The translations under genes were made by a program, and so were the position numbers. The notes under the pieces are model-generated. The model was not told the DNA's origin, made no database searches, and saw nothing but the letters and a program-made list of their open reading frames with translations. A stretch of 64,000 bases of DNA from Rhynchopus sp. YZ270_cl-10 (lineage: Eukaryota): contig OZ037835.1 in the NCBI GenBank assembly GCA_964035575.1, forward strand, positions 1,054,001 to 1,118,000. The letters are read 5' to 3'. Each line of letters begins with the position of its first letter. The first letter of the stretch is position 1. Shown here in pieces: positions 22,236 through 53,564 of the stretch.

Positions 22236-22622
22236 CCCTATTCCCCTATTCCCCTATTCCCCTATTCCCCTATTCCCCTATTCCCCTATTCCCCTATTCC
22301 CCTATTCCCCTATTCCCCTATTCCCCTATTCCCCTATTCCCCTATTCCCCTATTCCCCTATTCCCCTATTCCCCTATTCCCCTATTCCCCTATTCCCCTA
22401 TTCCCCTATTCCCCTATTCCCCTATTCCCCTATTCCCCTATTCCCCTATTCCCCTATTCCCCTATTCCCCTATTCCCCTATTCCCCTATTCCCCTATTCC
22501 CCTATTCCCCTATTCCCCTATTCCCCTATTCCCCTATTCCCCTATTCCCCTATTCCCCTATTCCCCTATTCCCCTATTCCCCTATTCCCCTATTCCCCTA
22601 TTCCCCTATTCCCCTATTCCCC
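22236..22622. repeat. (TATTCCCC)n microsatellite, ~48 copies
   Basis: Perfect 8-bp tandem repeat about 150 bp downstream of the stop codon of the unit 1 gene. Confidence 0.95.
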
Positions 22623-25114: not shown

Positions 25115-25142
25115 CCCTATTCCCCTATTCCCCTATTCCCCC
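25115..25142. repeat. (TATTCCCC)n, only 3 copies
   Basis: Same position in unit 2. Confidence 0.85.
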
Positions 25143-27855: not shown

Positions 27856-28437
27856 CCCTATTCCCCTATTCCCCTATTCCCCTATTCCCCTATTCCCCTA
27901 TTCCCCTATTCCCCTATTCCCCTATTCCCCTATTCCCCTATTCCCCTATTCCCCTATTCCCCTATTCCCCTATTCCCCTATTCCCCTATTCCCCTATTCC
28001 CCTATTCCCCTATTCCCCTATTCCCCTATTCCCCTATTCCCCTATTCCCCTATTCCCCTATTCCCCTATTCCCCTATTCCCCTATTCCCCTATTCCCCTA
28101 TTCCCCTATTCCCCTATTCCCCTATTCCCCTATTCCCCTATTCCCCTATTCCCCTATTCCCCTATTCCCCTATTCCCCTATTCCCCTATTCCCCTATTCC
28201 CCTATTCCCCTATTCCCCTATTCCCCTATTCCCCTATTCCCCTATTCCCCTATTCCCCTATTCCCCTATTCCCCTATTCCCCTATTCCCCTATTCCCCTA
28301 TTCCCCTATTCCCCTATTCCCCTATTCCCCTATTCCCCTATTCCCCTATTCCCCTATTCCCCTATTCCCCTATTCCCCTATTCCCCTATTCCCCTATTCC
28401 CCTATTCCCCTATTCCCCTATTCCCCTATTCCCCTAT
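27856..28437. repeat. (TATTCCCC)n microsatellite, ~72 copies
   Basis: Perfect 8-bp repeat in unit 3. Confidence 0.95.
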
Positions 28438-30274
28438 CCCCCCTTCTCGTGGCAAGACCGACAAACGAGAGCAAAAACGTAACAACACTTCACAGAAGCT
28501 TCGGACCATGGTACTGCGGGTTGCCTCTGACGCATCGATGCAGATGCGGCTGACTGTGCTCTTGCCGGTTGCAAACGCACCGGCCTTCTATCATTCTGAG
28601 CCTCTCCGTCGCTTGCGGCACTGCTCGGGAGATTCGTCTCTGCTACGTTTCGGACGTGCATCAACAAGCTCCTTCAGGTTGCTTTCCTGTACTCTACTCG
28701 ACACAGGGCTGCTGCAGCCGGAGAGGTGGATGCTCTTCAACGAAGTGTACAGGTGAGCAGGTAGTGGACCCATGTGCATGACGATGCCGAGTGGGGACAA
28801 GTCAAGCACTGTGAGGCTGCTGCAGCTGGCAAGAAAGCCACCACCGATTTTATAAACCATGCACAGCGGCGTCAAGTCTAGTTCTGTGAGGCTGGTGCAG
28901 TCGTTGAGAAAGGAGTCTCCTATTTGCGCAATATTCTCGAGTGGCGACAAGTCTAGTTCTGTGAGGCCGCTGCAGCCCTCAAGAAAGCTGCCGTCTATGT
29001 CTGTGACATTGCTAAGTGGTGTCAGGTCTAGCGTTGTGAGGCTGGTGCATCCCTCAAGAAACCAACGATCGATGTCTGTAACATTGCTGAGTGGTGCCAA
29101 GTTTAGTTCTCTAAGGCCCCAGCAGTTGGCAAGAAAGCATTCGCTTATGTGTCCAAGATTGCTGAGTGGCGACAAGTCTAATACTGTGAGGCCGCTGCAG
29201 CCATCAAGAAATGAACCATCGACTTTCGTAACATGTCTAAGTGGTGCCAAGTTCAGCACTATGAGGCCGATGCAGCCATCAAAAAACGATTCACCAACTT
29301 GTGTAATCCTGCTAAGTGGCGACAAATCTAATGCTGTGAGGCCTGTGCAGTTGGCAAGAAAGTATTCACGTAGTTGTGTAAGATTGGCGAGCGATGTCAA
29401 GTCTAGTTCTGTGAGGCCGCTGCAGCCGTAGAGAAAGAAACCACCAACTACCGTAACCTTGCTGAGTGGTGCCAAGTTCAGCACTGTGAGGCTCTTGCAC
29501 TCGTTAAGAAAGCAGTCGCCTATGTCTGTGACATTGCTGAGTGGTGTCAGGTCTAGCGTTGTGAGGCTGGTGCACTCCTCGAGAAAGCTTCCGGCTACTT
29601 GTGTAATCCTGCTGAGTGGCGACAGGTCTAATACTGTGAGGCCTCTGCAGGTGGTTAGAAAGTTCTCGCCAATCCGCGTCACATTGCACAACCCAGAGAG
29701 GTTGATACTTGTCAACGTTGAACACCCATCAAGAAAATAGTCACCTATTTCCGTCACACACAAAACAGCACTCAGATCAAGTGTTGTTAACGTTGTGTCT
29801 CCCAAGAAGCCATGCGGAATGACAGTCGCAACCTCCGCCTGCAGAAGCAAACACGCCACCTCAGGATCCTCCACACTCTCCAGCCTCTCTGCAAAAATAA
29901 ACGTTTTTAAAAATAGGATGGAGCACCCCGGTCCGAAAAGGAATGCAGCCACCCCTGGCTTCAGGCTCGCGAACCCAGTATTGCAGTAACACTGGGTCTC
30001 ACGGGCCAAAAACCGAACAAAGAAAAGGAAAATGTTTGGGTTCAGCGACAGCGCCAATGGGCTGACGCGACGCTGAACCAACTTAAAATAAAATAAAAAA
30101 ATCTTGTATCAACTTGAAAAAGAAAAGCAATGAACAGCAACAGAGCCATTTGGGCTTACGCGTCGCTAAAGTAACTGAAAAACAATGTTTTAAAAACAAG
30201 AATGTCGTTGACCAAGATTGAAATACACGAAAAAGGTAAAATACTAAGAATTGCCTCATATTCCATGGGCATCG

Positions 30275-31222
30275 TTTCTGATGTTGTAGTTTGTCTGCTG
30301 AGTGATCACGCGCCCCCCCCTACTAGGGAGGTCTTAGGTTCATGCTTCGGCTTGCACGTAAAGAACTACCATGTCGCCGAAGTTAGCGGTCCTCGTATTC
30401 CGTGAGGTCTTTCTGATGGTGTTGTTTGACTGCTGAGTGATCACGCGCCCCCCCTACTAGGGAGGTCTTGGATTCAGGCTTCGGCTTGCACGTAAAAGCT
30501 ACCATGTCGTCGAAGTTAGCGGTCCTCGTATTCCGTGAGGTCTTTCTGATGTTGTAGTTTGTCTGCTGAGTGATCACGCGCCCCCCCTACTAGGGAGGTC
30601 TTAGGTTCAGGCTTCGGCTTACACGTAAAAGCTACCATGTCGTCGAAGTTAGCGGTCCTCGTATTCCATGAGGTCTTTCAGATGTTGTTGTTTGACTGCT
30701 GAGTGATCACGCGCCCCCCCTACTAGGGAGGTCTTAGGTTCAGGCTTCGGCTTACACGTAAAAGCTACCATGTCGTCGAAGTTAGCGGTCCTCGTATTCC
30801 ATGAGGTCTTTCAGATGTTGTTGTTTGACTGCTGAGTGATCACGCGCCCCCCCTGCTAGGGAGGTCTTGGATTCAGGCTTCGGCTTGCACGTAAAAGCTA
30901 CCATGTCGTCGAAGTTAGCGGTCCTCGTATTCCGTGAGGTCTTTCTGATGTTGTAGTTTGTCTGCTGAGTGATCACGCGCCCCCCCTACTAGGGAGGTCT
31001 TAGGTTCAGGCTTCGGCTTGCACGTAAAAAGCTACCATGTCGTCGAAGTTAGCGGTCCTCGTATTCCGTGAGGTCTTTCTGATGTTGTAGTTTGTCTGCT
31101 GAGTGATCACGCGCCCCCCCTACTAGGGAGGTCTTAGGTTCAGGCTTCGGCTTGCACGTAAAAAGCTACCATGTCGTCGAAGTTAGCGGTCCTCGTATTC
31201 CATGAGGCACTTCAGATGTTGT
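30275..31222. repeat. 133-bp tandem repeat, ~7 copies, inside insert A
   Basis: Unit ...CTGCTGAGTGATCACGCGCCCCCCCTACTAGGGAGGTC...; repeated ORF images lie 399 bp (3x133) apart. Confidence 0.9.
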
Positions 31223-31309
31223 TCTTCTTTTTCTTCTTGTTCCGAGTCTTTGCCGCAGTCCTCTGCTTTGCCCGGGGTCACCTCGTGGAGGTGCTCGGTA
31301 AAACCCCGG

Positions 31310-31589
31310 TCTTCAGCCTTTTCGCAGTGATGTCTGTCTCACCCAACGCATGAAGAGCTGCTCTGGCCTCGAACTTCATCGACTTCGTCAACACAATCTT
31401 GTCCCCAGCACTCAGCTGCGTCATGTCCGCTCCTTCGCCCATCGCTTCGCATCCGAAATTCATCACAAAGCCGTCTTCAGGCAGCTCCACTGCAGACGCC
31501 ACCTTCCGCCGCATGTCCGTAGGTGTGTCATCCTCACCCAGCTCGACCACATGCTGCACTCCGTTCCACCCTTCGATAGTCAAATCCAT
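31310..31589 (-). pseudogene. 5' fragment (UBL domain + linker) of a different UBL-LRR paralogue carried by insert A
   Basis: MDLTIEGWNGVQHVVELGEDD...LSAGDKIVLTK...LGETDITAKRLK; family homology stops there. Confidence 0.85.
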
Positions 31590-31613
31590 TTTTTTGTGTT
31601 TCCGCGGTTTGCC

Positions 31614-31652
31614 CAATGAAGTACAGAAACTGTAGCTTTAGAAATCGTTGGT
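31614..31652 (-). other. Complete 39-nt spliced-leader (mini-exon) sequence in an mRNA-type context
   Basis: Minus strand reads ACCAACGATTTCTAAAGCTACAGTTTCTGTACTTCATTG, containing the conserved euglenozoan SL core CAGTTTCTGTACT.ATTG. It is followed by a 24-nt 5' UTR and an ATG, not by the GT of an SL RNA gene. Confidence 0.9.
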
Positions 31653-31734
31653 GGGGAGCCTCTCTGCAGTGATGTCGGTCTCACCCAACTTATGAAGCTC
31701 TGCAATGGCTTCGTACTTCTGCGTCTTCGTCAGG

Positions 31735-33370
31735 GTGGTAGTCCGTTTTAACGGTCTCTGGCAGGCCGGGCCTTCTTTCTGTGGCCTTCCCAACCAAAAG
31801 ACCCCCAAAAAACACAGGTACCTGCTGCGTTTAGTGGCATTTTACCCCAGTCCCTGGAACAGATCGGCAAGCCGACCAGCCCAGGTATGCATGCCAACAC
31901 TACTGGGGGTGCACTGTTCGATAGCATAAAAGAAAAAGTCAAAAAGTCAAAAAGACAAGAAGGTCAAACAAAATAGGTACTTCGAACAGGGCTGACAGGA
32001 GGGGATTCTCACCCGAGGTTCGGTGCCTGTCAGGCTGCGATTAGTGGTTCTGGGTGATTCCCTTCTTCCTAGCCACCGTTACCGCGGTGCCCACACCGTA
32101 AGAGAATGGGGACGGTTCACGACCGTTCGTTCGCGTCAGCAAAAGTAGGGGTCGGAGTCCAGGCCCGAACCGGAAACATTAACCTCCGTTTTTCGAAACA
32201 ATAAAAAGTAAAAATGAAAAAGAAAAATCAACAGCAAGAGCAGTGTTGTTGTAAAAGAAACAGCAGCACCGTCAGCTAACATGTCCACACAATATGGCAG
32301 ACGGCCACACAAAATTCCCCTGATTTGTACAGAGAAAGTTGTAACTTCTTCCTTACAAGTAAGGGAGTACCGGTAGGGAAGGAGTTACAACAAACAGTGA
32401 ACAAACTCAAGTACCAGCCTTTCCGCGTAGCACAGACCCTACATTTGGTAGTTGGTCTGCCCTACTGCCTCTTCTGCACCGTAGCTGAATGCCACGGCGA
32501 CAACTCCTTCATCTCCAACGTACCAAAGCACGTGAAAATAGAACAAAAATAAACACATTGGAAAACAACAGAGCATGTACCTGCAGAGTGCATACACCCT
32601 GAAAGTTTAACCTCTTCCTTCTAGCACAGACGTTGGTCTGCCCTACTGCCTCTTCTGCACCGTAGCTGAATGCCACGGCGACAACTTGTACCCACCTGCG
32701 AATGAATGCTCGCAGATCCCTTCTTCTACTAACGTATAAAAAACGTAAAAACAGACCAAAAACTACAACATGCCACACTGAATTAACGACAGAGCACGCA
32801 CCTGCAGATCCACAGATGTTTCACTACGGTGTACACAGCCTGAGGTTAAACACATAACACAAGAATTCTACTACGGCAAAAAGATGAAAACTGAACTGAA
32901 CTGAACAAAACTACAACACACCACACTGAATACACAAGAGCACGTACCTGCTGATCCACAGTTGTTTCACATACAGTGTACGCACCAACAAAGCAACACA
33001 ACGTTCCCATGCGGTCAAACGACAACACAGGAACAGCAACAATATTCCGTCACCAGTAGAGACACCGGCAACGCTTCCTTCTTGTACCTGGGATCCCCTC
33101 ATCGGCATCAACACACTCCCAGTCACCGCACAGGTAACAGATCCTTGAAACCCCTCCGAAGGGGTTTGCGTAGCCTACATAAGCTGGTGATCTGCCCGAA
33201 ATTGACTGTGATGTTGTATTAATAACCAGGGTTCCCACATCGGCTTGTTCCTCCTCCGGTCCCGAGCGAATCCATCATTGGAGAGGCGGCCGCCCACGCT
33301 GACTCAGTACCATGCGAACACGGCGTCCAGGGGCCCCACTTGGCGGTTGGTCAGACGTTAATTGCCCCCT
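31735..33370 (-). mobile_element. Insert B copy 1: non-coding SINE/SIDER-like retroelement with a 5' HDV-like ribozyme
   Basis: 18-bp TSD TTCTGCGTCTTCGTCAGG at 31717-31734 and 33371-33388. No long ORF; two internal ~190-200 bp repeats; several hairpins. Confidence 0.82.
33296..33369 (-). ncRNA. Putative HDV-like self-cleaving ribozyme at the 5' end of insert B
   Basis: Folded by eye: P1 GGGGGC/GCCCCU with G1.U wobble; P3 CCA/UGG; CC in L3 pairing with the GG after P1 (P1.1); P4 GCCGUG-UUCG-CAUGGU; J4/2 CUGA; P2 ACGUCUGA/UCAGCGU. Confidence 0.65.
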
Positions 33371-34047
33371 TTCTGCGTCTTCGTCAGGATGATTGTGTCA
33401 CCAGCACTCAGCTGCGTCATGTCCTCTCCTTCCTCCTTCCCTCCGAAGCCCATGTGGAAGCTGTCCTCAGCCAACCCTGCTGCAGACGCCACCTTCTGCC
33501 GCATCTCCTCCGTTGTGTCATCCACACCCACCTCGATCACGTACAAGTTGTCTGCACAGTCCTTGATGGTCAGTTCCATTTGCCTTCTTTTGTGTTGCTC
33601 TGTTGTGTGGTGGGGTTGTGGTTTTGGGGCAACGACGTAGAAACCCCTTGGCAGGCAGAGCCGTGCAACGACACCGCACGAAGCCGTCTCAGCCAATATT
33701 TAGCGTACACATGCATGCCGCATACGTCACGAAGTATGGCAGACAGGCACACAAGCAAGCAGAACGCTCCCACCGTCACCACTCACAGCACGCGAGTGTC
33801 CCCATCCCCACCAGAAGCAAGAGTGTCCCCAACCAGCCCTGAGCACGACGTCCTCTCCCGACCACACACATGATTTGGCCCACCCACAAAGCTGCTCATC
33901 GTTGCACGCATCACGCAGACGCACGATGGTAGGTGACTGCTTAGACGACCTGGGAGAAGAACACCCACCAGCTGCCACCTGCATGAGGGCACAGACGGCA
34001 CAGTGCCATGTCGCGAAAGTGAACCCACACACTGAATAAAAACACCA

Positions 34048-34265
34048 CACGACGGTGAAGTATAGTACATTACAAGTGAAGTTACTAGTAACGTTACAAG
34101 TGAAAAACCGTTACAAGTGAGTTACAAGTGGGATATATCAATTACAGGCAAAAGCAGGTGGTAACTGGTGGGTTACAAGTGGGTTACAAGTCAGTTACAT
34201 GTAACAAAAGTTACATGTAACTCACTTGTAACTCCACTTGTAACACCCGTTACTTCACCGTCGTG
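34048..34265. mobile_element. 218-bp MITE, CACTA/CMC-like
   Basis: 15-bp TIR CACGACGGTGAAGTA / TACTTCACCGTCGTG, 2-bp CA TSD (empty site at 43085-43105), subterminal TTACAAGTG repeats. Confidence 0.85.
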
Positions 34266-34303
34266 CACCCAAGATAGGCACCCCACCCCACCCACCCCAC
34301 CCA

Positions 34304-37300
34304 CACGACGGTGAAGTAACGGGTGTTACAAGTGGAGTTACAAGTGAGTTACATGTAACTTTTGTTACATGTAACATTACAAGTGCCACTTGTAATATAC
34401 ACGTATATTACATGTACCCATGTATATATTACACTGTACGCGCAGCAAATCCCTCATCCACACTCACGCAGAACCCATATTTCTCAAAAAAAAAAGACAC
34501 GTTTTTAACTATGTCCGTACTTCCAGCAAGCGGACTGCGCCAGACACACGGTTGTCACCACAGGCAAAGAAAGGAAAGTCGTCTGACCTCGAGGCAGATA
34601 ATCGAATCCAGAGCATGTTTGTGTCGTTCGCGGTCCTGGCCCTGTGGGAGGACAGACGCGCCCCTACCCTCAGTCTTCTCATTTTGTGGCTGGTGGGTAG
34701 GAGGGGGACCAGAAGAATGCACCGAGGTCCCAGGTCCTTGAACTGGACCAAGACACAGGCGGGCAAGCTCCGTCGGCGCAAGACGCCCTGCAAACGTCCG
34801 CCCTCTCCGGTCGCAGTCCCATGTCTTCGCAGGATAAGGGTTGCCGATGCTGTGGGAGGAGCGTGAATCCGGTCGTGTTGATAGCCCCAGGCTGTCAAAA
34901 CATAAAAAACACGGACCTAAAAGACGCGGAGGTTTTCAAGCGTCCAACGGTAGGCATAGCCCTATGTGAAGGTCACTACGAGACGATCCGGCCCACAGCG
35001 GAGGAGGGGGAAGATGTGTCGACGGCTTTGTTGAGGATCGCAGTCAGAGCGACGCTGAACCCCTTGGACCTGGATCTGCGCCCCATGTCGACCTCGAACC
35101 CCTCGGGGGAAGCTTTTGAGCTATGCTTGGGTAAGCCAGAGGAGGACTTCTGCTTCTGCCCGGTGGAGGGGTGCAAAAGGGGAATCATGGCACAGACGGA
35201 CGTGAAGTCTTTCACCCGCGATCAGCTTCTGGGGCACTTGAGACGCCACAAAGACAAGGAAGAGTAGGTGCCCGAACACATTCTGTCTTTCTTCGGCTAC
35301 AAAAGATGCGTCAGTGAGGACTGTTTTGCCCTGCTGAAGAAATCACAGAGCGCATGCAGGAGCTGTACACACCTCATGAAAAAGGTGCCCCTGCCAGGGA
35401 TCGAGGAACGCCTCACGCATGCCCTGAGGGAATGCCCACACTGGACATGATTGGCACAACCAGGTTCAAGCTGAAGGGGACTCACCAGACCTTCTCCATC
35501 GCTACACCCTTATCTTTCAGAGGGTTCTGCAGGAGATCCTGCAGCATCAGGATAAGAGGGCTTGGACCAAGTTTGCTGTGTTCTTCACCGTCCTGCACAG
35601 GGACCGTGGGGGTGGATGAGCTGGGTCACAAGATGCCAAACGGAGGTACTACAACTCCTGGAGACAGGACCTGAACTGGTGGGATGCGGGTGAGTGGTCG
35701 AATATGTGGGAGGAGCTCTGTCTGAAGTGCAAGCACGGCCGAAGTGGACGCCGGGTGACACGTTGGAGGCTCGCCAGAAACGTTCCCGCGTGAAAACGGC
35801 TGCAGGACTCCCTGGCCAAGCGCTGACCGCCCTCACCAGCGACGGCCTCGCCCCTCACGGACCGGAAACGTTGGCTAAACTGAAAGGTAAGCACCCAGCC
35901 TTTGATCCCCCTGTCGCCGCGTCCACTGGCCCCCTGAGGAACCCGTCCGGCCCGGCCGACTTCATCCCCAAGGAGGTCATAGCCGCGATCAGCAGCATGC
36001 CACGTGCCACTGCAGGAGGCCCCTCGAACCTCACCGGGTCCCTCCTTCGCACCCTTTGCAACCAGAAGCACACTCCTGGCACGCTCGCAGCCCTGTCGGC
36101 AGTGTTGTCTAGTCTGGCTCAAGGTAAAGCACACAAGGAGGTCGCGCCGTTCTTCGCAGGGGCCAAGCTGGTGGCCCTCAGGAAGGTGTCAAAAGGCAAA
36201 CCGGACGACGTGCGCCCGATTGCAGTTGGGGGTGTGATGCACCGTTTGGTTGGGAAGATCCTGGCGAACAGGCTGCGGAAGCGAGCGGCAGAAATTTTCC
36301 GCAAGGGGAACCAGGTGGGCGTGTCGACTACTTGGCGCCGAGGCAGCCACGACGATGGTTGCGCAGTACGCGAGGAGAAATGCTGGACAGGACAAGGTGA
36401 TTCTGAAGGTGGACTATCACAACGCTTTTAACACTGTTGATAGATCCACTTTCCTTGATGCGGCAGAGAAGCACATCCCTGAGATCTCACCCTGGGTGCG
36501 ATGGTGCTGCTCCGGCCGCACCTCCCTCTTCTATGGGGAAGACATCCTGCAGTCCCAGACAGGCGTGCAGCAAGGCGACCCCTTGGCCCTGTTCTGTTCT
36601 CTCTTGCGATTGCGGACATGACGGAACAGCTGAAGGCGAACAAAGCCCTTGATGGATCCATTTGGTACCTGGACGATGGATGCATCCGTGGCTCTCCTGA
36701 GGCTGTTAAGCATATGATGCGCTGGTGGTATCGAGCAAACGGGTTGGCCTGAAGGTGAACAATTCGAAGTGCGAGTTGGTGACACTCCGTGGCGACTCTG
36801 CAGCGGATTTGCGTGACAGGGGTTTTGACATCTGTGACGAGTCTGGTTCCCCTGGCTTCACCCTCCACCAGAAGAACTTCGATTTCCTGGGCGTCCCCAT
36901 CGGCACGGCGGAACACTGTAGGGAGTACATGCAGCGCAAGCATGACGAGTCGAAGCGGAACCTCGAGGCTCTTAAAGACCTCAAGGACTCACAGCATGCG
37001 TTCTACATCTTGCGCTTCTGCGAGGGGTTCTGCAAGATGGTATTCTACATGCGTGTAATATCATGTGTGGACCTAGGGGAGGACTACCTTCGGGACTTTG
37101 ACGCGGAGGTGGACAAGTGTTTGGCGGCGGTCCTGCACGATGAGCATGGGAAGATTTCGGAGCGGGCCCGCCTGCAGGCAGTGCTCCCCATCGCCATCGG
37201 AGGCTTAGGCGTCGCACTGCGGATCACTGGCCGGCAGCGGTCCTAGCGTCGCAGGCGGGGTGCCTCAAACTTGCCACGCAGTTGGACCCCTATTTTGAAT

Positions 37301-37563
37301 GGGACCAAACCAGGTGGAAGAATGCATTCGTCGTTTAAAAAAAAATTCTGTCGTACTGATCCGGGTACATGTAACTGGCTCCTCCCCGCAGACCGTACTG
37401 TGTTAAATACCACCCAGCCCCACCAAACACCACCAATTTCAGGCAGAATCAGGTGGTGGTACATGTAATATACATGTAACGTTACAAGTGGCACTTGTAA
37501 CGGTTTTTCACTTGTAACGTTACAAGTAACTTCACTTGTAATGCACTGTACTTCACCGTCGTG
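34304..37563. mobile_element. 3.26-kb TIR element of the same CACTA/CMC-like family carrying a retrotransposon fragment
   Basis: Same TIRs at 34304-34318 and 37549-37563, CA TSD, TTACAAGTG/CACTTGTAA subterminal arrays. Inverted relative to the adjacent MITE; no transposase ORF. Confidence 0.85.
34821..37245 (+). pseudogene. Decayed CRE/SLACS-like non-LTR retrotransposon ORF (C2H2 zinc finger + reverse transcriptase, 3'-truncated)
   Basis: CPVEGC...LLGHLRRH zinc finger and an in-frame stop at 35265-35267. RT motifs DVRPIAVG..HRLVGK, QVGV, LKVDYHNAFNTVDR, GVQQGDPLGPVLFSLAI, WYLDDG, GLKVNNSKCE and FLGVPIG span frameshifts near 36330, 36585 and 36720. Confidence 0.88.
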
Positions 37564-38207: not shown

Positions 38208-39045
38208 CCCTATTCCCCTATTCCCCTATTCCCCTATTCCCCTATTCCCCTATTCCCCTATTCCCCTATTCCCCTATTCCCCTATTCCCCTATTCCCCTA
38301 TTCCCCTATTCCCCTATTCCCCTATTCCCCTATTCCCCTATTCCCCTATTCCCCTATTCCCCTATTCCCCTATTCCCCTATTCCCCTATTCCCCTATTCC
38401 CCTATTCCCCTATTCCCCTATTCCCCTATTCCCCTATTCCCCTATTCCCCTATTCCCCTATTCCCCTATTCCCCTATTCCCCTATTCCCCTATTCCCCTA
38501 TTCCCCTATTCCCCTATTCCCCTATTCCCCTATTCCCCTATTCCCCTATTCCCCTATTCCCCTATTCCCCTATTCCCCTATTCCCCTATTCCCCTATTCC
38601 CCTATTCCCCTATTCCCCTATTCCCCTATTCCCCTATTCCCCTATTCCCCTATTCCCCTATTCCCCTATTCCCCTATTCCCCTATTCCCCTATTCCCCTA
38701 TTCCCCTATTCCCCTATTCCCCTATTCCCCTATTCCCCTATTCCCCTATTCCCCTATTCCCCTATTCCCCTATTCCCCTATTCCCCTATTCCCCTATTCC
38801 CCTATTCCCCTATTCCCCTATTCCCCTATTCCCCTATTCCCCTATTCCCCTATTCCCCTATTCCCCTATTCCCCTATTCCCCTATTCCCCTATTCCCCTA
38901 TTCCCCTATTCCCCTATTCCCCTATTCCCCTATTCCCCTATTCCCCTATTCCCCTATTCCCCTATTCCCCTATTCCCCTATTCCCCTATTCCCCTATTCC
39001 CCTATTCCCCTATTCCCCTATTCCCCTATTCCCCTATTCCCCTAT
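38208..39045. repeat. (TATTCCCC)n microsatellite, ~105 copies
   Basis: Perfect 8-bp repeat in unit 4. Confidence 0.95.
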
Positions 39046-40564
39046 CCCCCCTTCTCGTGGCAAGACCGACAAACGAGAGCAAAAACGTAACAACACTTCA
39101 CAGAAGCTTCGGACCATGGTACTGCGGGTTGCCTCTGACGCATCGATGCAGATGCGGCTGACTGTGCTCTTGCCGGTTGCAAACGCACCGGCCTTCTATC
39201 ATTCTGAGCCTCTCCGTCGCTTGCGGCACTGCTCGGGAGATTCGTCTCTGCTACGTTTCGGACGTGCATCAACAAGCTCCTTCAGGTTGCTTTCCTGTAC
39301 TCTACTCGACACAGGGCTGCTGCAGCCGGAGAGGTGGATGCTCTTCAACGAAGTGTACAGGTGAGCAGGTAGTGGACCCATGTGCATGACGATGCCGAGT
39401 GGGGACAAGTCAAGCACTGTGAGGCTGCTGCAGCTGGCAAGAAAGCCACCACCGATTTTATAAACCATGCACAGCGGCGTCAAGTCTAGTTCTGTGAGGC
39501 TGGTGCAGTCGTTGAGAAAGGAGTCTCCTATTTGCGCAATATTCTCGAGTGGCGACAAGTCTAGTTCTGTGAGGCCGCTGCAGCCCTCAAGAAAGCTGCC
39601 GTCTATGTCTGTGACATTGCTAAGTGGTGTCAGGTCTAGCGTTGTGAGGCTGGTGCATCCCTCAAGAAACCAACGATCGATGTCTGTAACATTGCTGAGT
39701 GGTGCCAAGTTTAGTTCTCTAAGGCCCCAGCAGTTGGCAAGAAAGCATTCGCTTATGTGTCCAAGATTGCTGAGTGGCGACAAGTCTAATACTGTGAGGC
39801 CGCTGCAGCCATCAAGAAATGAACCATCGACTTTCGTAACATGTCTAAGTGGTGCCAAGTCCAGCACTGTGAGGCTCTCGCAGCCGTCACAAAAGGATTC
39901 ACCAACTTGTGTAATCCTGCTGAGTGGCGACAAATCTAATGCTGTGAGGCCTGTGCAGTTGGCAAGAAAGTATTGACGTAGTCGTGTAAGATTGGCGAGC
40001 GATGTCAAGTCTAGTTCTGTGAGGCCGCTGCAGCCATTAAGAAAGCAACTACCAACTATCGTAACCATGCTGAGTGGTGCCAAGTTCAGCACTGTGAGGC
40101 CGCTGCAGCCGTTAAGAAAACAGTCGCCTATGTCTGTGACATTGCTGAGTGGTGTCAGGTCTAGCGTTGTGAGGCTGGTGCACTCCTCGAGAAAGCTTCC
40201 GGCTACTTGTGTAATCCTGCTGAGTGGCGACAGGTCTAATACTGTGAGGCCTGTGCCGGTAAGAAAGCTCTCGCCAATCCGCGTCACATTGCACAACCCA
40301 GAGAGGTTGATACTTGTCAACGTTGAACACCCATCAAGAAAATAGTCACCTATTTCCGTCACACACAAAACAGCACTCAGATCAAGTGTTGTTAACGTTG
40401 TGTCTCCCAAGAAGCCATGCGGAATGACAGTCGCAACCTCCGCCTGCAGAAGCAAACACGCCACCTCAGGATCCTCCACACTCTCCAGCCTCTCTGCAGT
40501 GATGTCGGTCTCACCCAACTTATGAAGCTCTGCAATGGCTTGGTACTTCTGCGTCTTCGTCAGG

Positions 40565-42419
40565 TAGGGGTCCGTTTTAGGTCTCTGGCAGGCCGGGCCT
40601 TCTTTCTGTGGCCTTCCCAACCAAAAGACCCCCAAAAAACACAGGTACCTGCTGCGTTTAATGGCACTTTACCCCAGTCCCTGGAACAGATCGGCAAGCC
40701 GACCAGCCCAGGTATGCATGCCAACACTACTGGGGGTGCACTGTTCGATAGCATAAAAGAAAAGTCAAAAAGTCAAAAAGACAAGAAGGTCAAACAAAAT
40801 AGGTACTTCGAACAGGGCTGACAGGAGGGGATTCTCACCCGAGGTTCGGTGCCTGTCAGGCTGCGATTAGTGGTTCTGGGTGATTCCCTTCTTCCTAGCC
40901 ACCGTTACCGCGTTGCCCGCACCGTAAGAGAATGGGGACGGTTCACGACCGTTCGTACGCGTCAGTAAAAGTAGGGGTCGGAGTCCAGGCCCGAACCGGA
41001 AACATTAACCTCCGTTTTTCGAAACATTAAAAAGTAAAAATGAAAAAGAAAAATCAACAGCAAGAGCAGTGTTGTTGTAAAAGAAACAGCAGCACCGTCA
41101 GCTAACATGTCCACACAATATGGCAGACGGCCACACAAAATTCCCCTGATTTGTACAGAGAAAGTTGTAACTTCTTCCTTACAAGTAAGGGAGTGCCGGC
41201 AGGGAAGGAGTTACAACAAACAGTGAACAAACTCAAGTACCAGCCTTTCCGCGTAGCACAGACCCTACATTTGGTAGTTGGTCTGCCCTACTGCCTCATC
41301 TGCACCGTAGCTGGACGCCACGGCGACAACTCCTTCATCTATCAACGTACCAAAGCACGTGAAAATAGAACAAAAATAAACACAATGGAAAAACAGCAGA
41401 GCATGGACCTGCAGATCCACAGTTGTTTCACGTACAGTGCATACACCCTGAAAGCTTAACCTCTTCCTTCTAGCACAGACGTTGGTCTGCCCTACTGCCT
41501 CTTCTGCACCGTAGCTGAGCCACGGCGACAACTCCTTCATCTATCAACGTACCAAAGCACGTGAAAATAGAACAAAAATAAACACATTGGAAAAACAGCA
41601 GAGCATGTACCTGCAGATCCACAGTTGTTTCACGTACAATGCATACACCCTGAAAGTTTAACCTCTTCCTTCTAGCACAGACGTTGGTCTGCCCTACTAC
41701 TTCTTCTGCACCGTAGCTGAATGCCACGGCGACAACTTGTACCCACCTGCGAATGAATGTTCGCAGATCCCTTCTTCTACTAACGTATAAAAACGTAAAA
41801 ACAGACCAAAAACTACAACATGCCACACTGAATTAACGACAGAGCACGCACCTGCAGATCCACAGATGTTTCACTACGGTGTACACAGCCTGAGGTTAAA
41901 CACATAACACAAGAATTCTACTACGGCAAAAAGATGAAAACTGAACTGAACTGAACAAAACTACAACACACCACACTGAATACACAAGAGCACGTACCTG
42001 CTGATCCACAGTTGTTTCACATACAGTGTACGCACCAACAAAGCAACAAAACGTTCCCATGCGGTCAAACGACAACACAGGAACAGCAACAATATTCCGT
42101 CACCAGTAGAGACACCGGCAACGCTTCCTTCTTGTACCTGGGATCCCCTCATCGGCATCAACACACTCCCAGTCACCGCACAGGTAACAGATCCTTGAAA
42201 CCCCTCCGAAGGGGTTTGCGTAGCCTACATAAGCTGGTGATCTGCCCGAAATTGACTGTGATGTTGTGTTAATAACCAGGGTTCCCACATCGGCTTGTTC
42301 CTCCTCCGGTCCCGAGCGAATCCATCATTGGAGAGGCGGCCGCCCACGCTGACTCAGTACCATGCGAACACGGCGTCCAGGGGCCCCACTTGGCGGTTGG
42401 TCAGACGTTAATTGCCCCC
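40565..42419 (-). mobile_element. Insert B copy 2
   Basis: TSD TTCTGCGTCTTCGTCAGG at 40547-40564 and 42420-42437. Near-identical to copy 1 but with three internal ~200-bp repeats instead of two. Confidence 0.82.
42346..42419 (-). ncRNA. Putative HDV-like ribozyme (copy 2)
   Basis: Sequence identical to 33296-33369; the first G directly abuts the TSD. Confidence 0.65.
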
Positions 42420-45767: not shown

Positions 45768-48700
45768 CCCCACCCCATCATCCTTCAGCATGCAGACAAC
45801 ACTGCCTACTCCCCATCCCATCATCCTTCAGCATGCAGACAACACTGCCTACTCCCCATCCCATCATCCTTCAGCATGCAGACAACACTGCCTACTCCCC
45901 ATCCCATCATCCTTCAGCATGCAGACAACACTGTCTACTCCCCATCCCATCATCCTTCAGCATACAGACAACACTGCCTACTCCCCATCCCATCATCCTT
46001 CAGCATACAGACAACACTGCCTACTCCCCATCCCATCATCCTTCAGCATGCAGACAACACTGCCTACTCCCCATCCCATCATCCTTCAGCATACAGACAA
46101 CACTGCCTACTCCCCATCCCATCATCCTTCAGCATGCAGACAACACTGTCTACTCCCCATCCCATCATCCTTCAGCATGCAGACAACACTGTCTACTCCC
46201 CATCCCATCATCCTTCAGCATACAGACAACACTGCCTACTCCCCATCCCATCATCCTTCAGCATACAGACAACACTGCCTACTCCCCATCCCATCATCCT
46301 TCAGCATACAGACAACGCTGCCTACTCCCCATCCCATCATCCTTCAGCATGCAGACAACACTGCCTACTCCCCATCCCATCATCCTTCAGCATACAGACA
46401 ACACTGCCTACTCCCATCATCCTTCAGCATACAGACAACACTGTCTACTCCCCATCCCATCATCCTTCAGCATGCAGACAACACTGCCTACTCCCCATCC
46501 CATCATCCTTCAGCATGCAGACAACACTGCCTACTCCCCATCCCATCATCCTTCAGCATGCAGACAACACTGCCTACTCCCCATCCCATCATCCTTCAGC
46601 ATACAGACAACACTGCCTACTCCCCATCCCATCATCCTTCAGCATGCAGACAACACTGTCTACTCCCCATCCCATCATCCTTCAGCATACAGACAACACT
46701 GCCTACTCCCCATCCCATCATCCTTCAGCATACAGACAACGCTGCCTACTCCCCATCCCATCATCCTTCAGCATGCAGACAACACTGCCTACTCCCCATC
46801 CCATCATCCTTCAGCATACAGACAACACTGTCTACTCCCCATCCCATCATCCTTCAGCATACAGACAACACTGCCTACTCCCCATCCCATCATCCTTCAG
46901 CATACAGACAACACTGCCTACTCCCCATCCCATCATCCTTCAGCATGCAGACAACACTGCCTACTCCCCATCCCATCATCCTTCAGCATACAGACAACGC
47001 TGCCTACTCCCCATCCCATCATCCTTCAGCATGCAGACAACACTGTCTACTCCCCATCCCATCATCCTTCAGCATACAGACAACACTGCCTACTCCCCAT
47101 CCCATCATCCTTCAGCATACAGACAACACTGTCTACTCCCCATCCCATCATCCTTCAGCATGCAGACAACACTGTCTACTCCCCATCCCATCATCCTTCA
47201 GCATGCAGACAACACTGCCTACTCCCCATCCCATCATCCTTCAGCATACAGACAACACTGCCTACTCCCCATCCCATCATCCTTCAGCATACAGACAACA
47301 CTGCCTACTCCCCATCCCATCATCCTTCAGCATGCAGACAACACTGTCTACTCCCCATCCCATCATCCTTCAGCATACAGACAACACTGCCTACTCCCCA
47401 TCCCATCATCCTTCAGCATACAGACAACGCTGCCTACTCCCCATCCCATCATCCTTCAGCATACAGACAACACTGCCTACTCCCCATCCCATCATCCTTC
47501 AGCATACAGACAACACTGCCTACTCCCCATCCCATCATCCTTCAGCATGCAGACAACACTGTCTACTCCCCATCCCATCATCCTTCAGCATACAGACAAC
47601 ACTGCCTACTCCCCACCCCATCATCCTTCAGCATACAGACAACACTGTCTACTCCCCACCCCATCATCCTTCAGCATGCAGACAACACTGTCTACTCCCC
47701 ATCCCATCATCCTTCAGCATACAGACAACACTGCCTACTCCCCATCCCATCATCCTTCAGCATACAGACAACACTGTCTACTCCCCATCCCATCATCCTT
47801 CAGCATACAGACAACACTGCCTACTCCCCACCCCATCATCCTTCAGCATGCAGACAACACTGTCTACTCCCCATCCCATCATCCTTCAGCATGCAGACAA
47901 CACTGCCTACTCCCCATCCCATCATCCTTCAGCATACAGACAACACTGCCTACTCCCCATCCCATCATCCTTCAGCATACAGACAACACTGCCTACTCCC
48001 CATCCCATCATCCTTCAGCATGCAGACAACACTGTCTACTCCCCATCCCATCATCCTTCAGCATACAGACAACACTGCCTACTCCCCATCCCATCATCCT
48101 TCAGCATACAGACAACACTGCCTACTCCCCATCCCATCATCCTTCAGCATACAGACAACACTGCCTACTCCCCATCCCATCATCCTTCAGCATGCAGACA
48201 ACACTGTCTACTCCCCATCCCATCATCCTTCAGCATACAGACAACACTGCCTACTCCCCATCCCATCATCCTTCAGCATACAGACAACGCTGCCTACTCC
48301 CCATCCCATCATCCTTCAGCATGCAGACAACACTGCCTACTCCCCATCCCATCATCCTTCAGCATACAGACAACACTGTCTACTCCCCATCCCATCATCC
48401 TTCAGCATACAGACAACGCTGCCTACTCCCCATCCCATCATCCTTCAGCATGCAGACAACACTGCCTACTCCCCATCCCATCATCCTTCAGCATACAGAC
48501 AACACTGCCTACTCCCATCATCCTTCAGCATGCAGACAACACTGTCTACTCCCCATCCCATCATCCTTCAGCATGCAGACAACACTGACTACTCCCCATC
48601 CCATCATCCTTCAGCATAGAGACAACACTGCCTACTCCCCATCCCATCATCCTTCAGCATGCAGACAACACTGCCTACTCCCCATCCCATCATCCTTCAG

Positions 48701-51700
48701 CATACAGACAACACTGTCTACTCCCCATCCCATCATCCTTCAGCATGCAGACAACACTGTCTACTCCCCATCCCATCATCCTTCAGCATACAGACAACAC
48801 TGCCTACTCCCCACCCCATCATCCTTCAGCATACAGACAACACTGCCTACTCCCCATCCCATCATCCTTCAGCATGCAGACAACACTGCCTACTCCCCAT
48901 CCCATCATCCTTCAGCATACAGACAACACTGTCTACTCCCCATCCCATCATCCTTCAGCATGCAGACAACACTGCCTACTCCCCATCCCATCATCCTTCA
49001 GCATGCAGACAACACTGCCTACTCCCCATCCCATCATCCTTCAGCATACAGACAACACTGTCTACTCCCCATCCCATCATCCTTCAGCATACAGACAACA
49101 CTGCCTACTCCCCACCCCATCATCCTTCAGCATGCAGACAACACTGTCTACTCCCCATCCCATCATCCTTCAGCATGCAGACAACACTGCCTACTCCCCA
49201 TCCCATCATCCTTCAGCATACAGACAACACTGTCTACTCCCCATCCCATCATCCTTCAGCATGCAGACAACACTGCCTACTCCCCATCCCATCATCCTTC
49301 AGCATACAGACAACACTGCCTACTCCCATCATCCTTCAGCATGCAGACAACACTGTCTACTCCCCATCCCATCATCCTTCAGCATACAGACAACACTGTC
49401 TACTCCCCATCCCATCATCCTTCAGCATGCAGACAACACTGCCTACTCCCCATCCCATCATCCTTCAGCATGCAGACAACACTGCCTACTCCCCATCCCA
49501 TCATCCTTCAGCATACAGACAACACTGTCTACTCCCCATCCCATCATCCTTCAGCATACAGACAACGCTGCCTACTCCCCATCCCATCATCCTTCAGCAT
49601 GCAGACAACACTGCCTACTCCCCATCCCATCATCCTTCAGCATACAGACAACACTGCCTACTCCCATCATCCTTCAGCATGCAGACAACACTGTCTACTC
49701 CCCATCCCATCATCCTTCAGCATACAGACAACACTGTCTACTCCCCATCCCATCATCCTTCAGCATGCAGACAACACTGCCTACTCCCCATCCCATCATC
49801 CTTCAGCATAGAGACAACACTGCCTACTCCCCATCCCATCATCCTTCAGCATGCAGACAACACTGCCTACTCCCCATCCCATCATCCTTCAGCATACAGA
49901 CAACACTGTCTACTCCCCATCCCATCATCCTTCAGCATGCAGACAACACTGTCTACTCCCCATCCCATCATCCTTCAGCATACAGACAACACTGCCTACT
50001 CCCCACCCCATCATCCTTCAGCATACAGACAACACTGCCTACTCCCCATCCCATCATCCTTCAGCATGCAGACAACACTGCCTACTCCCCATCCCATCAT
50101 CCTTCAGCATACAGACAACACTGTCTACTCCCCATCCCATCATCCTTCAGCATGCAGACAACACTGCCTACTCCCCATCCCATCATCCTTCAGCATACAG
50201 ACAACACTGTCTACTCCCCATCCCATCATCCTTCAGCATACAGACAACACTGCCTACTCCCCACCCCATCATCCTTCAGCATGCAGACAACACTGTCTAC
50301 TCCCCATCCCATCATCCTTCAGCATGCAGACAACACTGCCTACTCCCCATCCCATCATCCTTCAGCATACAGACAACACTGTCTACTCCCCATCCCATCA
50401 TCCTTCAGCATGCAGACAACACTGCCTACTCCCCATCCCATCATCCTTCAGCATACAGACAACACTGCCTACTCCCATCATCCTTCAGCATGCAGACAAC
50501 ACTGTCTACTCCCCATCCCATCATCCTTCAGCATACAGACAACACTGTCTACTCCCCATCCCATCATCCTTCAGCATGCAGACAACACTGCCTACTCCCC
50601 ATCCCATCATCCTTCAGCATAGAGACAACACTGCCTACTCCCCATCCCATCATCCTTCAGCATGCAGACAACACTGCCTACTCCCCATCCCATCATCCTT
50701 CAGCATACAGACAACACTGTCTACTCCCCATCCCATCATCCTTCAGCATACAGACAACACTGCCTACTCCCCACCCCATCATCCTTCAGCATACAGACAA
50801 CACTGCCTACTCCCCATCCCATCATCCTTCAGCATGCAGACAACACTGCCTACTCCCCATCCCATCATCCTTCAGCATACAGACAACACTGTCTACTCCC
50901 CATCCCATCATCCTTCAGCATGCAGACAACACTGCCTACTCCCCATCCCATCATCCTTCAGCATGCAGACAACACTGCCTACTCCCCATCCCATCATCCT
51001 TCAGCATACAGACAACACTGTCTACTCCCCATCCCATCATCCTTCAGCATGCAGACAACACTGTCTACTCCCCATCCCATCATCCTTCAGCATACAGACA
51101 ACACTGCCTACTCCCCACCCCATCATCCTTCAGCATACAGACAACACTGCCTACTCCCCATCCCATCATCCTTCAGCATGCAGACAACACTGCCTACTCC
51201 CCATCCCATCATCCTTCAGCATACAGACAACACTGTCTACTCCCCATCCCATCATCCTTCAGCATGCAGACAACACTGCCTACTCCCCATCCCATCATCC
51301 TTCAGCATGCAGACAACACTGCCTACTCCCCATCCCATCATCCTTCAGCATACAGACAACACTGTCTACTCCCCATCCCATCATCCTTCAGCATACAGAC
51401 AACACTGCCTACTCCCCACCCCATCATCCTTCAGCATGCAGACAACACTGTCTACTCCCCATCCCATCATCCTTCAGCATGCAGACAACACTGCCTACTC
51501 CCCATCCCATCATCCTTCAGCATACAGACAACACTGTCTACTCCCCATCCCATCATCCTTCAGCATGCAGACAACACTGCCTACTCCCCATCCCATCATC
51601 CTTCAGCATACAGACAACACTGCCTACTCCCATCATCCTTCAGCATGCAGACAACACTGTCTACTCCCCATCCCATCATCCTTCAGCATACAGACAACAC

Positions 51701-53564
51701 TGTCTACTCCCCATCCCATCATCCTTCAGCATGCAGACAACACTGCCTACTCCCCATCCCATCATCCTTCAGCATAGAGACAACACTGCCTACTCCCCAT
51801 CCCATCATCCTTCAGCATGCAGACAACACTGCCTACTCCCCATCCCATCATCCTTCAGCATACAGACAACACTGTCTACTCCCCATCCCATCATCCTTCA
51901 GCATGCAGACAACACTGTCTACTCCCCATCCCATCATCCTTCAGCATACAGACAACACTGCCTACTCCCCACCCCATCATCCTTCAGCATACAGACAACA
52001 CTGCCTACTCCCCATCCCATCATCCTTCAGCATGCAGACAACACTGCCTACTCCCCATCCCATCATCCTTCAGCATACAGACAACACTGTCTACTCCCCA
52101 TCCCATCATCCTTCAGCATGCAGACAACACTGCCTACTCCCCATCCCATCATCCTTCAGCATGCAGACAACACTGCCTACTCCCCATCCCATCATCCTTC
52201 AGCATACAGACAACACTGTCTACTCCCCATCCCATCATCCTTCAGCATACAGACAACACTGCCTACTCCCCACCCCATCATCCTTCAGCATGCAGACAAC
52301 ACTGTCTACTCCCCATCCCATCATCCTTCAGCATGCAGACAACACTGCCTACTCCCCATCCCATCATCCTTCAGCATGCAGACAACACTGTCTACTCCCC
52401 ATCCCATCATCCTTCAGCATGCAGACAACACTGCCTACTCCCCATCCCATCATCCTTCAGCATACAGACAACACTGCCTACTCCCATCATCCTTCAGCAT
52501 GCAGACAACACTGTCTACTCCCCATCCCATCATCCTTCAGCATACAGACAACACTGTCTACTCCCCATCCCATCATCCTTCAGCATGCAGACAACACTGC
52601 CTACTCCCCATCCCATCATCCTTCAGCATAGAGACAACACTGCCTACTCCCCATCCCATCATCCTTCAGCATGCAGACAACACTGCCTACTCCCCATCCC
52701 ATCATCCTTCAGCATACAGACAACACTGTCTACTCCCCATCCCATCATCCTTCAGCATGCAGACAACACTGTCTACTCCCCATCCCATCATCCTTCAGCA
52801 TACAGACAACACTGCCTACTCCCCACCCCATCATCCTTCAGCATACAGACAACACTGCCTACTCCCCATCCCATCATCCTTCAGCATGCAGACAACACTG
52901 CCTACTCCCCATCCCATCATCCTTCAGCATACAGACAACACTGTCTACTCCCCATCCCATCATCCTTCAGCATGCAGACAACACTGCCTACTCCCCATCC
53001 CATCATCCTTCAGCATGCAGACAACACTGCCTACTCCCCATCCCATCATCCTTCAGCATACAGACAACACTGTCTACTCCCCATCCCATCATCCTTCAGC
53101 ATACAGACAACACTGCCTACTCCCCACCCCATCATCCTTCAGCATGCAGACAACACTGTCTACTCCCCATCCCATCATCCTTCAGCATGCAGACAACACT
53201 GCCTACTCCCCATCCCATCATCCTTCAGCATACAGACAACACTGTCTACTCCCCATCCCATCATCCTTCAGCATGCAGACAACACTGCCTACTCCCCATC
53301 CCATCATCCTTCAGCATACAGACAACACTGCCTACTCCCCATCCCATCATCCTTCAGCATGCAGACAACACTGTCTACTCCCCACCCCATCATCCTTCAG
53401 CATGCAGACAACACTGTCTACTCCCCATCCCATCATCCTTCAGCATACAGACAACACTGCCTACTCCCCATCCCATCATCCTTCAGCATACAGACAACAC
53501 TGCCTACTCCCCATCCCATCATCCTTCAGCATGCAGACAACACTGCCTACTCCCCACCCCATCA
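45768..53564. repeat. 43-bp satellite, ~180 units, with higher-order structure
   Basis: Unit CCCCATCCCATCATCCTTCAGCAT(A/G)CAGACAACACTG(C/T)CTACT; recurring 37-bp deletion variants and rare CATAGAGAC variants. Confidence 0.95.

Follow-up and report, generated by a model that had tools for sequence, protein, structure and literature searches.

Spliced leader and 5' part of a host-type mRNA joined to a retroposon with a hepatitis delta virus-like ribozyme fold within one target-site duplication in Rhynchopus sp. YZ270_cl-10

The minus strand of a 64,000-nt stretch of Rhynchopus sp. YZ270_cl-10 (assembly GCA_964035575.1, contig OZ037835.1, positions 1,054,001 to 1,118,000; here called the window and numbered from its first letter) carries a tandem family of genes with a ubiquitin-like (UBL) header followed by BspA-type leucine-rich repeats (LRRs). 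One of these genes is interrupted by an insert in which a spliced leader (SL), a 5' untranslated region (UTR), and the UBL header of another family member are joined to a multicopy noncoding retroposon, element B, that starts with a fold like that of the hepatitis delta virus (HDV) ribozyme. The explanation that we favor, with a probability of about 0.65, is that a copy of B resident in a gene of the type of the family protein P0122 was cotranscribed with its host without cleaving itself off, received the SL by trans-splicing, and was then retrotransposed in full into the same target of another family member (5' transduction). This figure also covers the case of a donor transcript that was cleaved by its ribozyme, after which the polymerase switched from the element part back to the upstream piece of that transcript. 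An initial annotation, made from the sequence alone, had also proposed 5' transduction from a resident element; the SL, the paralogue header, the repeated element at a fixed target, and the canonical junction speak for that proposal, but no donor chimera turned up among the called proteins.

The insert is 1,763 bp long (31656-29894, minus strand) and is flanked on both sides by the 12-bp direct repeat TGCAGAGAGGCT, its target-site duplication (TSD). This 12-mer is present once each in two other paralogues of the window (at 40498 and 26442), one of them a duplicate gene unit at ∼39 to 43 kb, ∼10 kb away and diverged by ∼2% from the recipient unit. Deleting the insert and one repeat in silico left 258 of 259 positions equal to the empty site of this duplicate. 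A TSD with a homologous empty site, a fixed 3' end with a simple tail, and a variable 5' junction with untemplated bases are all found here, as in elements without long terminal repeats (non-LTR) that insert by target-primed reverse transcription. The CCCC between the upstream TSD and the SL would be a nontemplated addition at the 5' junction. All parts named by the initial annotation lie on the minus strand in the order that it gave, from TSD, CCCC, 39-mer, 24-nt UTR, and ATG (31589) through the header to the repeats, the tail, and the second TSD; its ∼7 repeats of 133 bp amount to 7.1 copies, and the U-rich, hairpin-bearing tail without poly(A) is there as a T-rich stretch with long hairpins. 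It had ended the header at the homologue of the TSD, but the true end, ...GGCTGAAGACC, lies 7 nt past the homologue of the 12-bp repeat, at +19 from the repeat start. This internal junction of header and element B aligns to the base that corresponds to resident 5' junctions, and the host part carried with B (SL, UTR, and header) comes to 345 nt.

The 39-mer behind the CCCC is a spliced leader. An exact-match scan of metagenome contigs with it found one locus, L001, in which it is preceded by GGTTA, followed by GTATG, and located downstream of U5, U1, U2, and U4 genes. A contig of run X8 departs from the window at the SL end and enters GTATG and nearly identical intron sequence, and the SL bin of this run is at least 6-fold deeper than every other bin. 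The SL RNA gene exon with its GTATG in L001 and the X8 contig bear out that this is an SL. In L001, an A stands directly before the 39-mer. The 39-mer matches the exon exactly, but the true SL may begin with this A, one base earlier, and the word "full" is therefore uncertain. In the window, the SL adjoins an mRNA UTR without the GTATG intron, and the DNA thus contains a trans-spliced product. The 39-nt length, the linkage of SL and small nuclear RNA genes, and the likeness of the 39-mer to SLs, closer for those of diplonemids, point to a euglenozoan, probably a diplonemid. The 39-mer equals 16 of 17 letters of a euglenozoan SL motif printed in PMC7859406, and in Diplonema papillatum the SL exon is 39 nt long and lies in linkage with U2 genes (PMC10161547). 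At L001:164-1618, the SL RNA gene (exon 1501-1539) shares one short unit with U5, U1, U2, and U4 small nuclear RNA genes, a linkage that differs from the SL-5S-U2 unit of D. papillatum, called exceptional in PMC10161547, and is larger. Another SL-derived locus appears in run X1 as a depth-796 contig (window 31613-31652) with two tandem SL copies separated by a 7-letter spacer.

The UTR and header lead to a particular parent. The inserted header is 74 to 78% identical in nucleotides to the other headers of the window, and P0121, the 103-residue open reading frame of the window, forms a 90% cluster with P0122 only. P0122, on a different contig, is an intact UBL-LRR protein of 329 residues; it is identical to the inserted header over 94 of 94 residues and then continues with VKDPEV. 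Its upstream frame reads ...NK|GKPRKHKKM, and the 24-nt UTR of the window reads GKPRKHKK, so the SL was added just after the Lys codon. Such a codon can end in the AG of a splice acceptor, and we infer the AG itself. The header derives from the trans-spliced mRNA of a paralogue of the P0122 type. The divergent UBL paralogue of the initial annotation is thereby identified, and its reading of an SL fused to a UTR as the mark of a reverse-transcribed mature mRNA agrees with the match of SL, UTR, and header to such an mRNA. As in SL-tagged retrogenes, the SL stands flush with the UTR of the parent gene; the mRNA was not copied from its own 3' end or poly(A), the parent sequence stopping after codon 94 and giving way to element B. 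We also considered a simple retrocopy of a short gene that has a UBL alone and a long 3' UTR, and rejected it, since the parent runs into LRRs and the downstream part is multicopy. In run X3, one contig (window 31489-31592) agrees fully with the inserted header over the header's first 104 nt, but its 68 letters upstream of these do not match the UTR; it is possibly another near-identical paralogue.

What follows the header had been described as unrelated sequence. It is a multicopy noncoding retroposon, and the HDV-like fold begins at its first base. The full model of RF02682 (HDV ribozyme) matched at 31307-31240 with 28.2 bits (gathering threshold 44; E 0.02), ahead of the other 6 Rfam matches of 29800-33500 with E up to 10; at gathering threshold, the entire window gave 0 hits. 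A ribozyme descriptor gave a single match in 64 kb on 2 strands, starting at 31307, and 8 matches in total over 60 resampled windows, a control that shows rarity and is not an unbiased test, the descriptor having been written after the fold had been noticed. The core consists of P1 (GGGGUU/GACCCC), P3 (ACC/GGU), L3 (UCCACGA), P4 (GCAG/CUGC), J4/2 (CAAA), and P2 (CCGAG/CUCGG, with a bulged A), and G38-G39 are able to pair with C22-C21 as P1.1, which gives the nested double pseudoknot of P1, P1.1, P2, P3, and P4 with a C-R-A-type J4/2. Cleavage is predicted between 31308 and 31307. In P0132, Gln, with a codon ending in A or G, precedes GVLPSTSTR (the translation of the ribozyme), so the C before the ribozyme in the window is not element sequence. 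A private 1-nt deletion in P2 of the window copy was ruled out, since GVLPSTSTR is also the reading of P0124 and P0132. In the metagenome contigs, the ribozyme pattern was matched 0 times.

Element B is repeated. Runs X1 and X3 are deep and behave like DNA. In X1, depth reaches 6532 at 29960-30070 against ∼210 to 320 at most unique joints, which implies roughly 20 or more copies. The last 60 to 85 nt are deeper still, being common to a higher-copy family, and a contig of run X8 passes from them into other sequence. The tail ends in TTTATTTT, without poly(A). Contigs at the 3' junction in X1 and X3 have T-runs shorter by 2 to 3, and one has 10 other flank letters; other paralogues thus bear the same B end at the same place.

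Table 1. Features of the insert and its surroundings in the window
Feature	Position	Strand	Remarks
Upstream TSD TGCAGAGAGGCT, 12 bp	31657..31668	minus	One copy at empty site 40487-40498
CCCC	31653..31656	minus	From neither target nor SL-gene flank
Spliced-leader exon, 39 nt, possibly without first A	31614..31652	minus	Exact match to SL exon in L001
5' UTR of P0122-type mRNA, 24 nt	31590..31613	minus	Translates GKPRKHKK like P0122 upstream frame
UBL-type header, N-terminal 94 codons	31308..31589	minus	Translation identical to intact P0122
HDV-like ribozyme fold, 5' end of element B	31240..31307	minus	RF02682 full-length match, descriptor hit
Element B core, 1,414 bp, noncoding multicopy retroposon	29894..31307	minus	Contig depth; peptide GVLPSTSTR in P0124, P0132
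133-bp unit, 7.1 tandem copies	30275..31222	minus	95% matches
U-rich 3' region with long hairpins, final T-run varying among copies	29894..30274	minus	
Downstream TSD TGCAGAGAGGCT	29882..29893	minus	T-tail and its CAG form a splice-acceptor-like site
Recipient gene LRR remainder (BspA-type), open to stop codon	28591..29893	minus	Pfam LRR_5
Element A, older insertion in recipient gene, also in duplicate gene	31734..33370	minus	17-bp TSD CTGACGAAGACGCAGAA
Recipient's own UBL header, severed by element A	33371..33579	minus	
Empty target site in duplicate gene unit	40487..40498	minus	Element A present, B absent

Insertion at this place is a habit of the family. We compared 180 family proteins (120 of 220 longer-length matches, 38 of 38 near-length matches, and cluster members), probably all from one and the same assembly; their Pfam matches are LRR_5/LRR_8 and weak ubiquitin, with no RHS family. 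Three of the 180 (P0121, P0124, and P0132, with headers 64 to 79% identical) end in GVLPSTSTR, and 23 run into the peptide of a further element, C. Among junctions visible as in-frame peptides, the junction lies 12 residues after a GETD-type motif in 26 of 26 fused proteins (3/3 for B and 23/23 for C). A second fixed position, site A, is marked by GAINV of element A, which ends 6 proteins, 6/6 of them there, with a frameshifted form in 1; six proteins begin with A-type 3' peptides. The element peptides are 95 to 100% identical, against 56 to 100% for their hosts, and most fused headers have an intact sister at 93 to 99% (range, 84 to 100%). On a fast and weak header tree (159 headers, 67 columns, 7 starred branches), state changes numbered 3 for 3 B rows, 14 for 16 C rows, and 7 for 7 A rows. 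The scatter of fused headers, together with the conserved element peptides, indicates that insertion has been repeated and independent, and the UBL-LRR family resembles trypanosome RHS genes in having an insertion hot spot. The other two reading frames of the B start were found in 0 of the 180 proteins, and a weak search for out-of-frame fusions of B to further genes gave 4 candidates, 0 of them significant. Convincing SL-derived read-through peptides numbered 0 among the 180; a 5-mer SL-peptide match in 3 LRR proteins was judged to be chance.

Element C, known from its translated 5' end, inserts at the codon used by B and is the commoner of the two (P0013, P0126, P0137, and 20 others); P0127 and P0135 resemble 5'-shortened or frameshifted C junctions. 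At site A, nine proteins (P0140, P0151, P0157, P0158, P0159, P0163, P0166, P0168, and P0173) have other peptides starting or ending there, which suggests further element families, some with the same last few codons as element A. P0075, P0134, P0097, P0118, and P0178 share abrupt C termini (GTKT; GYTQRTQKERI) inside the LRR array, suggestive of a third fixed insertion site, in the repeats.

These junctions set the terms for explaining the chimera, and the position of its internal junction at the codon of resident insertions favors 5' transduction. In that course of events, B would insert by target-primed reverse transcription with the machinery of a putative autonomous element and a staggered cut of ∼19 nt; the junctions are observed to be fixed, and the enzyme and the cut length are deduced from them. 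Resident copies would be transcribed with the host unit and normally released by the ribozyme, by analogy with R2 and L1Tc. In a P0122-type gene, the host Thr codon ACC would set C-2 and C-1 before the cut site, and these are predicted to extend P1 across the two G's needed for P1.1 and thereby to slow cleavage. Extension of P1 that disrupts P1.1 is reported to reduce cleavage of the L1Tc and, moderately, the R2 ribozymes (PMC3185411), and the activity of SIDER ribozymes is altered by upstream sequence (PMC4035085). Trans-splicing would then put the SL at the acceptor of the host, and the chimeric RNA would be copied from the U-rich 3' end of B to the cap and joined with CCCC and a duplication 7 nt shorter than usual; the resulting structure is observed, and the order of events is our reconstruction. 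When R2 copies retain host RNA from upstream, this RNA can be inserted too and appear as a duplication, with deletions and nontemplated bases at the 5' junction (PMC3774820), like the 12-bp repeat and CCCC here. The donor would read as a P0122-type header joined to GGGGTTTTACCG, with genomic sequence upstream ending in AG. A host mRNA 5' part and a full-length element stand together within one TSD, as 5' transduction entails.

Several observations weigh against this explanation. The donor locus, predicted by the initial annotation as a UBL header joined to the 133-bp module, is absent among called proteins (the cluster has 2 members, the best other long match is 82%, and the matches of near length include none). 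In run X1, header depth (854.8) exceeds that of the joint to the intact continuation (582.7) by 272, about one copy, so that this insert alone accounts for the header excess; X3 disagrees, its depth of 359 to 406 against a unit of ∼85 to 105 leaving room for one more copy. The slowing of cleavage relies on a nested folding in which C-1:G38 and C-2:G39 have probabilities of 0.92 to 1.00 when at least 2 upstream bases are included, by a model that cannot form pseudoknots and overstates the rival helix, and the effect is described as moderate in the cited papers. The junction counts resolve codons and not bases, no autonomous partner of element B was identified, and among the 32 contig pieces listed, none spans TSD-CCCC-SL or the header/ribozyme junction. 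These unspanned joints could also suggest cDNA contamination or misassembly, which we consider extremely improbable, since the exact TSD faces an empty paralogue and contaminant cDNA would not make a target duplication; moreover, the internal junction falls at a biologically used codon, and header depth in X1 is about one copy above that of the intact continuation.

The absence of a donor, beside an intact parent that does exist, also fits a template switch, in which the reverse transcriptase reached the ribozyme-made 5' end of free B RNA and jumped onto the mature mRNA of intact P0122. The X1 depth agrees with intact copies plus one, the junction shows 1 nt of microhomology, a G (contig joint 29873 to 31307), and for R2, a template jump to a sequence resembling cyclin A has been noted as putative (PMC3774820). 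An unguided jump, however, would rarely meet the canonical resident position, seen in all 26 fused proteins and in the +19 register; by our estimate, a random switch would find the junction base about once per 1,000 positions of a roughly 1-kb mRNA. In a guided form, the P0122 mRNA would have annealed to the bottom strand of the target and been cut or single-stranded at the usual top-strand cut, which requires an RNA cut without precedent in the literature consulted. We consider a template switch unlikely. Less likely still, and very improbable overall, are two successive events, with B first inserted with a 19-bp duplication and its 5' junction later broken and mended by the reverse-transcribed mRNA of P0122, the repair replacing the last 7 nt of the left duplication. 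This would account both for the missing donor and for a left repeat of 12 instead of 19 bp, in a family hit repeatedly at this site. The 19 nt beside the ribozyme, however, have the letters of the donor and not those of the recipient, which would need complete removal of the primer overhang, and the duplicate gene has no intermediate with B and without the header.

Element A, 65 nt upstream of the B insert and with its own 17-bp TSD (33371-33387 and 31717-31733), is present in both duplicates, so the recipient was already broken when the B insert arrived. The inserted frame ends with GVLPSTSTR and a stop inside the ribozyme, and the 1.4-kb element separates it from the open LRR remainder. As the locus stands, it yields no fused UBL-LRR protein, and the insert is a dead one in a gene that was already broken; the initial annotation had foreseen that a new UBL header would come to precede another LRR array, and this is not supported as a product, given the stop, the 1.4 kb that follow, and element A. 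The T-tail, together with CAG in the downstream TSD, resembles a splice acceptor (11 T within 20 nt, a value reached by 2.2% of 2068 minus-strand YAG sites) and could explain 3'-end formation without poly(A); element A has no such T-tail. Element A itself (31734-33370 and 40564-42419) is noncoding and 1.6 to 1.9 kb long, with an internal 200-bp unit of variable copy number. Its 5' end was set aside as a ribozyme, the P1-, P2-, and P4-like pairings having been seen by eye with no Rfam or descriptor match.

The chimera is of the 5'-transduction type. The elements SLACS, CZAR, and CRE1 target SL RNA genes, whereas here the SL is followed by an mRNA UTR and not by the GTATG intron, and the target is a UBL-LRR gene. 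A poly(A) tail and a 12-bp TSD are features of the ingi/L1Tc clade (RIME, NARTc, and SIDER). The TSD here is also 12 bp, but resident junctions imply ∼19 bp; element B has no poly(A), shows a general HDV fold, and is not assigned to that clade. The RHS genes of Trypanosoma likewise form a family in which many genes carry retroelements, ingi/RIME and L1Tc/NARTc, at a single position (PMC7563717). Here, in contrast, the target is a UBL and BspA-type LRR family, in which at least 3 element families insert at two sites separated by 65 nt. The tail lacks poly(A) and is T-rich, and duplications usually measure 17 to 19 bp (17 shown for A and 19 deduced for B). L1Tc transcripts are reported to lack the SL (PMC7563717).

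R2 and its nonautonomous SIDEs are site specific, and a 5' HDV-like ribozyme frees them from the host cotranscript (PMC3774820), as proposed for B; their host is 28S rRNA, whereas here it is a protein-coding trans-spliced mRNA, and the carried part extends over 345 nt to the SL. LINE-1 5' transductions and mRNA-L1 chimeras also unite a processed mRNA 5' end and a full-length element in one TSD, with the source element missing (PMC13174262). Those are joined mostly by splicing, and ours is joined at the insertion codon and the ribozyme of the element; the processing mark here is the SL, and the chimera landed in a paralogue, at the homologous position. In SL-tagged retrogenes of dinoflagellates, an SL directly before the 5' UTR in genomic DNA likewise marks reverse-transcribed mRNA (PMC6050394), whereas the present copy holds only the 5' third of the coding sequence, lacks poly(A), and has a retroposon as its 3' end, which likely supplied the priming end for the chimera. 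A literature search in which subscription papers were mostly outside coverage, judged by titles and the opening of abstracts, found no ribozyme-headed retroposons or such hot spots in diplonemids and no SL-bearing transduction. The supplementary files of PMC10161547 gave no relevant match; the main supplementary text, possibly describing such repeats, may lie outside them.

A wider reading, quite unlikely when taken as a whole, joins three propositions: a sequence-specific non-LTR system with two fixed target codons in a UBL-LRR family of several hundred members; riders that start with HDV-like ribozymes and whose RNA 3' ends arise via trans-splicing at the T-tail and target CAG, hence without poly(A); and a host codon before the ribozyme that decides whether the rider moves alone or with an SL-bearing header. 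If it were true, UBL headers would routinely be moved between paralogues, and header-LRR pairs would be reshuffled after recombination across the element. The single chimeric insertion is a dead end for its host, and more of the interest lies with the ribozyme and hot-spot system. The insert would be a natural record of a failing 5' ribozyme in a retroposon, with the SL marking the exact start of the copied RNA. That such ribozymes free their elements from polycistronic host transcripts has long been assumed; this role, and the way in which host bases upstream control it, are now directly testable. Ribozyme-headed hot-spot retroposons would also extend from trypanosome RHS genes to an unrelated protein-coding family in an apparent diplonemid, which points to a putative sequence-specific endonuclease and reverse transcriptase (RT) with protein-coding targets.

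Element B contains no RT-like match. The RT relic of the window (∼34.5 to 37.3 kb; frameshifted, with a weak RVT_1 match) was rejected as its partner, nothing tying the two together; long relatives of the relic have, when read by eye, RT followed by CCHC and PD-type motifs. The relic, of a restriction-like endonuclease (RLE)/CRE-like type, is enclosed in a 3.5-kb element upstream of the recipient (34048-37563) with ∼70-bp terminal inverted repeats that are 96% identical and another inverted-repeat end close to 34316. Each duplicated UBL-LRR gene is closely followed on its downstream side by an array of CCCTATTC; these arrays have 3 to 105 copies (22236-22622, 25115-25141, 27856-28442, and 38208-39050) and vary much faster than the surrounding units. 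A 7.8-kb satellite at 45768-53564, with 182 copies of a 43-bp unit, sits inside a copy of a short dispersed repeat.

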